Shown here piece after piece: positions 11,771-15,156 of a stretch of DNA of 43,336 nucleotides. The stretch covers positions 62,001 through 105,336 of the forward strand of contig BAAIJX010000065.1 in NCBI GenBank assembly GCA_054600435.1, read 5' to 3'. Under the pieces are notes generated by a model. It was not told where the DNA came from, made no database searches, and saw only the letters and a list, made by a program, of their open reading frames with translations. The number at the start of each line of letters is the position of its first letter. Position 1 is the stretch's first letter. The DNA is from Neophaeotheca triangularis. Taxonomy: Eukaryota. The translations under genes and the position numbers were made by a program.

Positions 11771-12568
11771 GTCCGGCCAGCAGAAGGCAGGCGGGCAGTA
11801 AGTTCCAGGTTAGTAAAGTTGCCTAGTAAAAACGGACGGATCGTGACTTGTGGCTTGCTTCGACCTAGCGTCGACTCGAGCCAAATTTGGAAGTGCCAAT
11901 GATTCTCGTCTCCGCCAAAATATTGACTTTTATGATTCGCTGAATCGCGAGAATAAAGAAGGGTAAGGTATTCAAGGTCCTTCCCATCAGTTACCAGAGG
12001 ATGGGCTGAGATGTCGTACCTAGGTATTCTCACAGTAGAACCGCAAGCCACCCGACCAAATTTGCAGCTTCCAGTACGAGGAAATAAATCCAACCCCGAC
12101 CCGATAACAAGCAACGTCGTCGTTCTCCAGTCCACTACCTACTACTGTCTGCGGCCTTGTGACTAGTCTTCACAGTAGTAGTAACAGTAGTAACTCAGTA
12201 GTCTTCCGTCCCTGCGTGTCTAGCAGCTGCACGCCGACAGATGCCAAACGGCCGCGATGCAAGGCCAGAGTCTAAAGAGAGGTAGAATCTTCCGATCCAG
12301 TCATGCCCTCGCTACTACCGCTGAGGCCCGTCAATACTCATTGATTTGACAAGTCTCCCGCTCTCCCTTCCCTCCACGTGCAACGAGTCAAACGACACCT
12401 GGCGCCCGGGATGATGCTGGTGCTTGGTGAGGAGGACGTCAGTAGTAGTGGGAGAATGGTTTGATCGACCCGGGTGTTTTGGAAGGCAGTCTAGGTAGTG
12501 GTTGTGGTGTTAGTATGCTATTACTGGTGTAGCTCCGAAAAGACGTGCTGCCACGCTGTCGCCCCGAT

Positions 12569-12648
12569 GATTGATTGACTGACTGACTGATTGACTGACT
12601 GACTGACTGACTGATTGATTGAGTGATTGATTGATTGATTGATTGATT
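12569..12648. repeat. Compound tetranucleotide microsatellite (GATT/GACT)~20
   Basis: Directly visible intergenic tandem array. Confidence 0.95.
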
Positions 12649-13200
12649 GGCCAAGACCGCATCATTGGAAACAATAATGCCATCTCGAAACTTGCCGTGT
12701 TCGAGCGCGCATACTAGCAACGATAATAATGTCCTTCCAGTCACCATCAAGAAGTCTCCACTCTCCGGGTACGAGGTTTGGCACGGGCACAGGTACAGTA
12801 TTATTACATATTGCTAGCATTCATCTTCTCTGCGCCTTCAATCATCTGTTCGTGTTGCAAGACAAGCCAAATATCACACTGTCTACATACCTTAAAGCCG
12901 TGAACGTAAAGACCACTATGGATTCGATTAAATGAGCAAAGCAAATCCAAGACTGTCTTTCGTGATGACAACAAAACATACGACAACCCGTCACCACCGA
13001 CAGGGCGACCAACTCCTCAGCCCTCTATACAAACGCATGTGCGACCCCATCGCACCTCTCAAGCTGCCGCGGTATATAGGCTGGCTCCAGCGCAACCTCT
13101 ACTACTACAACACCACAACCCCATACCTCAACCCCTCCAAATCCGGCTCCCCCCCACAACCCCAACACCAACACACTCAGATCGCAAATCATCCCAAATG

Positions 13201-14197
13201 CTACTTGGTCAAAAAGGCCTTCATGCGATTGCTGCCAGCCGTCTCATCCTCAATCTGCTCAAGCTCATTCAATCTACCCGTAGCCACATCCAACAAGACG
13301 CCATGAACCTGCGTTTGTCCAGCCTGCATGGCATCAATCACGGTACTAATCCTCTTGAGCCCCTCCACACCCGCCTGCACATTCAGCTTTGCAAGGTAAT
13401 TGCTCTTCTCCATCCCCTCGAGCTTCTCCAACTCCTCGGCATGCCTTTCCCGCAGCAACCGCATCGGCTGCAACCAGACGTCTATAACGCCGAGTTTGGC
13501 ATTTCCCAGAGTCGCGCCCACGCCTCCGCAGCTGGTGTGCCCGGCTACGACAATGTGCTCGACTTTGAGGTTCTTGACGGCGAAATCCACAACGCTGAGC
13601 ATGTTGATGTCGGTCGGGGAGACGATGTTGGCGATGTTGCGGTGCGTGAAGACATCGCCGGGTTTGAGACCCAGCAGCGTGGTTTCGGGCATGCGGCTGT
13701 CGGAGCAACCGATCCAGAGGATCTTTGGGGATTGCCCTTTTGCGGCTTTGGGGAAGAAGTCTGGGTTCTCACTCGCGGTGCGTGTCGCCCATTCTTCGTT
13801 GGCGCGGATCGAGTCTGCCCATATGTTGCCTTTGGAGGTGGTTATGTTGTTAGCTTCGGCATCGTCGGTGGGAGTGTTGCTCCTGCTGCTGCTGCTGTGG
13901 AAGCGGGTTTGGGACGAGTCATGGGTGCTGCGAGGTGGTGCGTGGGAGATGCAGGGTCGGGTGCGAGGTTGGAGTTGGAGGCCGCCGGGTCTGGGTGTGC
14001 GGACTGTGCCCGCCTGGCGTAGACATGATCGTAATAATGGTTGCATGAAGGGAGCGAGGGGTTTTGCGCTTGGTGCGAGGCAAAGGATGGGGATAGGAAG
14101 CGAAGGGATTGATGTGCTGCAGGGTTTGGAGGGCGTTCGCATATCGAAATGATTCACTCTACTTACCCGATGGCCCGTTCCCGTTGGTCCCAGCCAT
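13201..14197 (-). CDS. Beta-class carbonic anhydrase; mitochondrial isoform 14046-13201 (281 aa) and predicted spliced cytosolic isoform 14197-14167 + 13829-13201 (219 aa)
   Basis: Zn-ligand motifs ILWIGCSDSR and GHTSCGG, plus GDVFTHRNIANIV. Arg/Ser-rich, nearly acid-free N-terminus from ATG 14046. GTAAGT donor at 14166, GCTAAC branch at 13854-13849, AAG acceptor at 13830. Confidence 0.9.
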
Positions 14198-15156
14198 TGC
14201 GATCCAGGAGTTTGGTGGTGGTTCTTGAGCTCGTCGGGTTGGAATGTATTGAATTGGAATAGACGATAGAGACTCTTCTCTATGGAGCAGGTCGTAGATT
14301 ACAGGAGATACTGCCGTTGAGGAAGATATGTACAATACAGACGCAATCGCTGACGATAGCAACGGGCGGTCTTTCTTTTGTGATTTCACCCGAGCTGTTG
14401 GGAGCTCAAACTCCGACGAAAGTGCGGATACAGCGGGGTAGTGCCCCCCTTCTCGGCACGCCTGGGCGAAAGAGGAAGATGCGACTACATTTGGTAGGTA
14501 CTGCCTACTTGAGGCTCACACAGTCACGAGGTTTGTATCGTACCGCCAAAAGTGCGACGAATGGCTCGCTGTGCCCTCCCTACAAGACCACCTCGAGCTT
14601 CGTAGGTTTTTGAAGTCCGACGAGAAATGAAATGGTGATACGCTTTCCACAACAGAGACCAAGCATTGAGATATCTTGAACGCTGCTCGTCTTCACCCCT
14701 TCTTACACCCAAGATGCCCAGTCAACTGTCCGCGAACTTGGCTACCTTAGCGCCCAAGGCCACGAGACGATGTGTGGTGTATCAGCTCGTTCACACATGA
14801 GCTGGGCATGCAAAGACCCCTCAAAACCACCTGAGGGGGAGTCTTCGGAACAACGGCTGGCTTCTGTAGCGGGCGCCAATGTCTCGGAACGCTCGCGAAA
14901 GACTTGCGCGCATGAGGAACATACAGCAGCGCTCTGCATACTTGGGTAGGTGTATGTATGTACCTGAACTGTATCAAGTCGGTACACCCAAGGTGTAGCC
15001 ATGATAAGACGCCCGTCGAGACCGCTGTCTCGAACACGAGGTAAGCATGTCGAATATCAAGTACGCCATGCCGGCCTGTAGCACCTCGATGAACGATGGC
15101 AAGGCCACGCAACCACCTACCGTGAATACATCCATACGGCAAAGTCAACCGGAGCC

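Follow-up and report, generated by a model that had tools for sequence, protein, structure and literature searches.

Contig BAAIJX010000065.1 of the fungus Neophaeotheca triangularis (GenBank assembly GCA_054600435.1) carries a beta-carbonic anhydrase gene which, judged by its sequence and by that of related loci, probably supplies one and the same enzyme to two compartments, the cytosol and the mitochondria. The gene lies on the minus strand between 14297 and 13201 of a 43,336-nucleotide (nt) stretch of the contig (positions 62,001 to 105,336 of its forward strand), which was analysed as a whole, is referred to as the window and provides all coordinates given below. One 5' end of the gene, a mini-exon joined to the catalytic exon across a 337-nt intron, is present in RNA and belongs to an enzyme of 219 amino acids. 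The other would be an arginine-rich leader encoded inside that same intron, in frame with the catalytic exon and reminiscent of a mitochondrial presequence in its composition. A predicted leader nested in the first intron recurs in four of eight related loci that were read.

Splicing of the mini-exon to the catalytic exon

Five studies of marine metatranscriptomes provide ten RNA libraries that contain parts of the window; four of these libraries (runs X1 to X4) were mapped. Record 6 of run X2 is a 227-nt contig, assembled at a depth of 4.7, which matches the window without a single mismatch from 14297 to 14166 and then continues from 13828 to 13734, with 132 and 95 nt flanking the junction. 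The joint was listed as 'skips 337, CT..AC (cut +1)', which corresponds to a GT..AG intron on the minus strand bounded by 14166 and 13830, and thus to the junction 14167|13829 that a preliminary description of the locus had predicted from the letters of the DNA. The support for the splice amounts to one contig in one of the four runs mapped; the splice is real, and a leaderless mRNA exists.

The transcription start of this mRNA lies at or upstream of 14297, the limit of the RNA contig. Its first exon, exon 1a, consists of a 5' untranslated part (14198..14297, on the minus strand like all features of the gene) and a coding mini-exon (14167..14197) of 31 nt, made up of the ATG and 28 further nt, which ends in phase 1 and is joined to exon 2 in RNA. 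As no ATG is present in 14297-14198, AUG 14197 is the first AUG of the X2 contig, and its context (atcgcaATGg) has a purine at -3 and a G at +4. The intron (13830..14166) begins with the 5' splice site GTAAGT (14161..14166) and ends with the 3' splice site AG (13830..13831) in phase 1, both in agreement with the RNA joint. This AG is the first one after a GCTAAC (13849..13854) which conforms to the branch-site consensus, lies about 20 nt before the acceptor and encodes Ala-Asn in the long form; its use as the branch point is presumed. The mini-exon, its donor, the GCTAAC and the acceptor are all located where the preliminary description had put them, and the exons are joined in frame as it had claimed, the spliced coding sequence specifying 219 amino acids with a single, terminal stop. 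The intron is rich in C (140 C, 87 A, 55 G and 55 T). GTAAGT occurs 13 times in the window where 11.96 occurrences are expected and GCTAAC 12 times where 15.86 are expected, and since both motifs are present at chance frequency they prove nothing by themselves. Another acceptor, the CAG at 14119-14117, would yield a 50-nt intron with the same donor; it was rejected, since with it AUG 14197 would no longer be in frame and the junction would differ from the one found in RNA.

If the intron is kept, the reading from AUG 14197 is closed after 12 codons by a TAG (14159..14161), in keeping with the earlier claim that the upstream start of an unspliced RNA opens an upstream open reading frame (uORF). 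Such an early stop would suit an explanation in which the intron-retaining mRNA is regulatory and has no part in targeting, the uORF and the retention serving to lower output, for example through nonsense-mediated decay, with little or no long protein being made. The mini-exon frame likewise stops within 4 to 9 codons past the donor in all four relatives that share the layout (see below), and intron retention is the dominant splicing variant in fungi (PMC12861292; this and the other sources cited by PMC number are drawn upon for part of their text). Regulatory retention is nevertheless improbable as a full account of the locus, because it leaves unexplained both an open, leader-like enzyme frame in five diverged lineages and the second, frame-restoring donor of the relatives.

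A predicted leader reading frame inside the intron

The frame of the enzyme is the sole stop-free frame among the six of the intron, the others carrying 3, 3, 3, 5 and 1 stops. The preliminary description had placed ATG 14046, and with it the beginning of a 281-amino acid isoform, inside the 337-nt intron, and this is indeed where it is found: from ATG 14046 a predicted leader open reading frame (ORF) of 72 codons (13831..14046) is contiguous with exon 2. A second in-frame ATG, at 14142, was absent from that description; it adds a stretch of 32 codons (14047..14142) and could give a form of 313 amino acids, with no further ATG between the two. The leader ORF includes a (CAG)n-like stretch at 13870-13902 that is read as poly-Ser/Ala and could be mistaken for intron expression. 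Among the contigs of X1 to X4 it is the only part of the intron to attract any pieces, which come from two unrelated records (4 and 7) of run X2.

The first 40 residues from ATG 14046 include seven Arg or Lys and six Ser or Thr but no Asp or Glu, the first acidic residue being at position 43, compared with three Arg or Lys and five Asp or Glu in the first 40 residues of the short form. The maximal helical moment over 11 residues is 0.63 for the leader and 0.48 for the short form, values for which there is no calibrated threshold, and the leader is rich in Pro and Gly. In being free of acidic residues and in combining Arg/Lys with hydroxylated residues the leader has the composition of a presequence. 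The intron-encoded extension is likely to be of the mitochondrial-presequence type, and import into mitochondria is predicted.

Dinucleotide shuffles of the intron give an in-frame, ATG-initiated ORF of at least 60 codons running to the acceptor in 581 of 5000 cases and a leader-like ORF in any frame in 475 of 5000; the two properties, open and leader-like, are found jointly in 44 of 5000. An in-frame, joinable and leader-like ATG-ORF appears in 169 of 4000 shuffles under a relaxed criterion: the composition criterion, at first at least five Arg or Lys in 30 residues, was lowered to at least four after one of the related loci (L003) had failed it.

The two-start layout in related loci

Metagenome contigs were scanned and gave 80 loci, the best eight of which (L001 to L008) were read; the remaining 72 (L009 to L080, at most 50% identity), which are probably for the most part bacterial, were left out. 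Four of the eight, L001, L002, L003 and L008, which are 62, 62, 44 and 57% identical respectively, share the layout of the window. They begin with a mini first exon of 19, 7, 19 and 4 coding nt, in the same order, which ends at a GTAGGT or GTATGT donor and is followed by an intron of 208, 276, 206 and 237 nt with a CTAAC-type branch site and a phase-1 acceptor directly before the first conserved helix. Each of these introns contains exactly one Arg-rich, leader-like ATG-ORF of 34 to 56 codons, the two nested ATGs of L008 being counted as one. The ORF is not continuous with exon 2, as it lies in another frame or meets a stop within the branch site, and it is provided with a phase-1 donor of its own (GTGCGT, GTACGC, GTACGC and GTGCGC) located 53, 82, 69 and 58 nt before the shared acceptor. 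Distances of 53 to 82 nt correspond to the usual size of a fungal intron. Shuffles of the introns produce a joinable, leader-like ORF in 65 (L001), 257 (L002) and 47 (L003) of 4000 cases.

The introns of the window and the four relatives cannot be aligned with one another, all 10 pairs falling within the range of shuffles, compared with scores of 84-148 for the first 300 nt of exon 2. As the introns are unalignable and exon 2 is alignable, the leader that they have in common is not merely inherited sequence. Both predicted N-termini are thus conserved among the relatives, in four of the eight loci read. It is proposed that the relatives represent the old layout, in which the leader would be kept as an exon of its own (exon 1b) within the intron and would be spliced from its phase-1 donor to the acceptor also used by the mini-exon. 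In L003 the leader ATG sits just 13 nt after the first donor, which makes it more likely there that two donors compete for one acceptor on a single transcript.

A corresponding inner donor was sought in the window, where the intron contains six GT dinucleotides. Only the one at 13915 (GTCCCA), 86 nt upstream of the acceptor, is comparable in position, and it was rejected on account of its phase (2) and its poor hexamer. In the lineage of the window, where a usable inner donor is lacking, the small inner intron thus appears to have been lost, which would have left the leader contiguous with exon 2.

Annotated homologues

For L003 the predicted long form has 251 amino acids and can be aligned over its full length with P0078, a 251-amino acid protein of Friedmanniomyces endolithicus annotated at NCBI; the residue at the junction is identical in both. 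The two proteins differ at 10 positions, eight of them within the first 41 residues and two in the remaining 210. In the comparison of L003 864-1069 with P0078 the leader is seen to evolve fast yet to retain its character. L001 and L002 have predicted short forms similar to proteins, annotated or assembled, whose first residues are Met-Ala-Gly (P0005, P0008, P0022 and P0024).

A Gly-Gln-x-Pro anchor is present in 119 of 120 homologues, and the number of residues before it is at most 50 in 73 proteins, 51 to 70 in 12 and more than 70 in 34. Many of the homologues with a long N-terminus are Arg-rich and acid-free in this part. The split into short and long proteins may in part be one of paralogues, notably in the Eurotiomycetes. 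Three proteins of Hortaea werneckii (P0012, P0015 and P0024) are near-identical in the enzyme and have 286, 239 and 214 amino acids. The forms of 286 and 214 amino acids both start with Met-Ala-Gly, and one of them runs into the helix and the other into an Arg-rich extension. These length variants look like homeologues annotated with and without the intron.

In another reading of the locus the splice is rare noise, and what the gene chiefly makes is the long unspliced form, a mitochondrial enzyme similar to CAS2 of Sordaria macrospora and CafA of Aspergillus fumigatus. A gene caller predicts the ORF of 281 amino acids (P0001), a length that fits the 284 amino acids of CAS2 and the 287 of the CafA chain 7coi. 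Against this, assembly yielded a contig of the spliced form at a depth of 4.7, the mini-exon with its strong donor is kept in four relatives, and 73 of the 119 anchored homologues are short, so that the long form is very unlikely to be the principal product.

A constitutive intron or a targeted second form

A simpler account of the locus would be that the intron is constitutive, that the cytosolic enzyme of 219 amino acids is the only product, and that the Arg-rich frame is an untranslated remnant of a decaying leader exon or a by-product of C-richness. The following observations favour this account or otherwise weigh against a functional leader. The sole RNA record across the region is spliced, and no long form was seen among the RNA contigs of X1 to X4, although contigs cannot show absence. 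Codon usage, expressed as log-odds after training on seven of the window's long ORFs, gives no coding signal for the leader ORF (-0.117 per codon, as against +0.368 for exon 2). Every one of the 60 in-frame training windows of 72 codons scores higher (mean 0.303, minimum -0.097), and the leader ORF does not surpass its own +1 frame (-0.030) either. The context of ATG 14046 is weak, with a T at -3. The cleavage-type motif R-x-[FYL]-[AST], which is looser than the processing-peptidase consensus R-x-(F/Y/L)-(A/S) (PMC11285713), has no match in the leader of the window and is present once in L001 and twice each in L002 and L003. A search with the N-terminal 104 residues, which had 53 candidates among 5.8 billion proteins, retrieved the protein itself only. 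In the closest relative (P0002, 80% identical) the ORF starts only 42 codons before the position of the acceptor, and its N-terminus makes a weak leader with three Arg or Lys and one acidic residue in 30. In-frame ORFs of at least 60 codons are not rare in the shuffles given above (581 of 5000), and long stop-free frames are common throughout this G+C-rich region, the antisense strand included. As to the relatives, L008 misses the strict composition criterion on account of one Glu in its first 30 residues, and L003 fails the first criterion of at least five Arg or Lys. The layout is absent from the other four of the eight loci: L004 is situated at the edge of a contig; in L005 the same phase-1 position is occupied by what, by eye, is a plain intron some 70 nt long; the intron of L006 lies elsewhere; and L007 starts directly with an ATG. 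Finally, both the thresholds and the pattern for the donor were fixed once the loci had been viewed, and the shuffle figures are therefore indicative only.

Presequences are compositionally odd and evolve fast, and the arguments from codon usage, from the motif and from the homologues consequently weaken the case for a leader without refuting it. A constitutive intron, on the other hand, does not readily account for an ORF both open and leader-like, a combination that arises in only 44 of 5000 shuffles, for the stops in the five other frames of the intron, or for the four relatives that retain a leader ORF and a phase-compatible donor in introns that cannot be aligned. Nor would it explain why the leader junction of one relative is used by an independent annotation (P0078), or why the intron, at 337 nt, is several times as long as the 53 to 82 nt of the relatives' inner introns, as would be expected if it housed an exon. 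With these points in mind a constitutive intron is considered unlikely.

Proposed mechanism

The arrangement favoured here is a single beta-carbonic anhydrase gene whose mRNAs would have one or the other of two 5' ends. The transcript which starts at or upstream of 14297 has AUG 14197 as its first AUG and, with the mini-exon spliced to 13829, encodes the enzyme of 219 amino acids, whose short and neutral N-terminus has no targeting signal and which is presumably cytosolic. A second mRNA would retain the 337 nt, either by intron retention or by virtue of a transcription start inside the intron, and would be translated from AUG 14142 or 14046 straight into exon 2 to give a precursor of 313 or 281 amino acids, in which the Arg-rich, acid-free extension would act as the mitochondrial presequence. 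The two routes to this mRNA place different demands on translation. A transcript that starts between 14166 and 14047 would have an in-frame AUG, 14142 or 14046, as its first, there being no other ATG between these two, and the pyrimidine-rich tract before 14046 can be likened to the CT-rich regions near fungal start sites. A retained intron leaves the 12-codon uORF, which ends 17 nt before AUG 14142, and would therefore call for reinitiation or leaky scanning. The switch could consist of intron retention, of an intron-internal start or of both, and the distribution of the enzyme over cytosol and mitochondria would be determined by the ratio of spliced mRNA to mRNA that is either unspliced or started internally.

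The preliminary description had likewise derived both forms from a single locus and had put forward CO2 as a possible regulator. Its leaderless product of 219 amino acids has its mRNA in the X2 contig, and the Arg-rich extension and the recurrence of the layout in four of eight loci argue in favour of the remainder, whereas neither a long-form RNA nor a second transcription start was seen in the mapped runs. A more far-reaching version is put forward tentatively, as a possibility that falls somewhat short of being probable. It would be an ancient switch of the Dothideomycetes between two first exons, the mini-exon and the nested leader exon, which share one phase-1 acceptor; a choice of donor, of retention or of promoter, possibly responsive to CO2 or bicarbonate, would split the enzyme between cytosol and mitochondria, and in the lineage of the window simple retention would toggle the targeting.

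The enzyme and its catalytic exon

Exon 2 (13201..13829) holds the entire catalytic domain and ends with a TAG stop at 13203-13201; RNA contigs of X1 to X4 cover 13176-13828 piecewise. The long ORF matches the Pfam family PF00484 (Pro_CA) with 151.8 bits, compared with a cut-off of 25.7, over profile positions 1-156 of 156, and the domain occupies 13270..13722, which corresponds to residues 141-291 of the 313-amino acid reading. The match with known structures puts the start of the conserved fold at residue 72 of the 281-amino acid form, the position of the splice acceptor. A Cys-x-Asp-x-Arg motif (13693..13707; C114, D116 and R118 of the 281-amino acid form) and a His-x-x-Cys motif (13528..13539; H170 and C173) fall into columns that are invariant in 36 of 36 aligned sequences. 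We take C114 to be a zinc ligand and D116 and R118 to form the Asp-Arg dyad. The zinc ligands of beta-carbonic anhydrases are two Cys and one His (PMC13514724). The gene product is, from its domain and motifs, a plant-type beta-class carbonic anhydrase, and CO2 hydration activity is predicted. The nearest solved structures are those of a red-alga carbonic anhydrase (1ddz), of CafA (7coi, E 1.2e-67), of CAS1 (4o1j, 2.6e-61) and of CAS2 (4o1k, 3.4e-45). The best database relatives of the enzyme are from Dothideomycetes, including Saxophila, Hortaea, Peltaster, Friedmanniomyces and Zymoseptoria, and by these relatives the host is placed as a Dothideomycete-like fungus.

RNA contigs from several runs deviate from the window at 13369, 13397, 13504 and 13507. 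The variants at 13504 and 13507 are in synonymous third positions (Gly and Leu), that at 13369 is in a third position as well, and that at 13397 replaces Tyr by Phe, a pattern that would fit purifying selection among natural strains. On the opposite strand of the gene (12910-14149, plus) there are stop-free frames of 370 and 250 codons with ATG-ORFs of 274 and 199 amino acids. These antisense frames are most likely a by-product of composition, open frames being cheap in a G+C-rich region. Downstream of the gene, in its 3' flank, two overlapping ORFs with Gln-Ser-Ile/Val/Asn repeats (12439-12747, minus strand) form a tandem low-complexity repeat.

Comparison with known systems

The closest counterparts of the predicted long form are the mitochondrial carbonic anhydrases of other filamentous ascomycetes. 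The first 60 residues of S. macrospora CAS2 suffice for import into mitochondria, as judged by GFP and DsRED fusions, and the only second form suggested for it, a variant started at a CTG inside the leader, is mostly cytoplasmic; the coding region of CAS2 is reported to be intronless (PMC2664464). Residues 1-74 of A. fumigatus CafA have been treated as a targeting peptide (PMC7528686). Both proteins belong to the same Pfam family as the enzyme described here, with the domain at the C-terminus, an extension of 55-74 residues before the first helix and a similar overall length (281 amino acids here, 284 in CAS2 and 287 in the CafA chain). They differ in that neither a mini-exon nor a splice over the leader is described for them in the available portions of the two reports (PMC2664464, PMC7528686).

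Alternative 5' ends that change the location of a beta-carbonic anhydrase are known from plants, where alternative first exons or start sites have this effect in AtbetaCA2, AtbetaCA4 and Neurachne CA1/CA2 (PMC5226100). The enzyme family is the same, and so is the principle that one gene yields different N-termini. The compartments are different, however, chloroplast or plasma membrane versus cytosol, as are the exon layouts, and a leader which lies inside an intron and is contiguous with the next exon is not described in the part of that source drawn upon (PMC5226100). In yeast, an AUG inside the intron of APE2, and probably also a transcription start there, leads to a second isoform, and splicing versus retention decides the location of the PTC7 product (PMC7491326). 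APE2 resembles the locus of the window in that an AUG within an intron gives the second isoform and that one isoform has a mitochondrial signal, and PTC7 in that location is set by splicing or retention. The polarity of APE2 is opposite, as its predicted mitochondrial signal is encoded by exon 1 and the cytoplasmic form starts from the AUG in the intron; both yeast genes, moreover, encode other proteins and belong to the Saccharomycotina. Bol3 of A. fumigatus owes its dual localisation to a single mRNA on which leaky scanning gives access to a downstream AUG (PMC11285713). Here, too, one gene of a filamentous ascomycete gives mitochondrial and cytosolic forms by including or excluding a leader. 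Bol3 does so without splicing ('intron' and 'splic' occur zero times in the text available from PMC11285713), whereas in the window the cytosolic start is the upstream one and the leader is spliced out.

In a review of the fungal carbonic anhydrases from 2026 the terms 'splic', 'dual', 'alternative' and 'transcription start' are all absent from the portion available (PMC13514724). The literature searched, in which coverage of subscription journals is limited, yielded no account of splicing over the leader in a fungal carbonic anhydrase. The locus is likely to be a fungal instance of a mechanism already known from plant beta-carbonic anhydrases and from yeast APE2 and PTC7, and because the mechanism is known from plants and yeasts the effect on general biology would be modest.

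Implications for fungal carbonic anhydrases

Besides providing bicarbonate for carboxylases, fungal beta-carbonic anhydrases have a part in the sensing of CO2, and they are under discussion as targets for antifungals. Alternative splicing with a function is considered rare in filamentous fungi, for which the gene would offer a compact case, open to testing, of regulated choice between 5' splice sites or retention of an intron. In the literature consulted, cytosolic and mitochondrial carbonic anhydrase activities of fungi are assigned to separate genes (PMC2664464, PMC13514724). If the switch between two first exons is real, many public gene models, 73 of them short and 34 long among the 119 anchored homologues, would give one of two products, and a prediction of localisation from a single gene model would be wrong for half of what the gene makes. 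Automatic annotation of this carbonic anhydrase gene would then need two models throughout the Dothideomycetes and, should one gene serve both compartments across the class, its knock-out would remove the cytosolic and the mitochondrial pool simultaneously.

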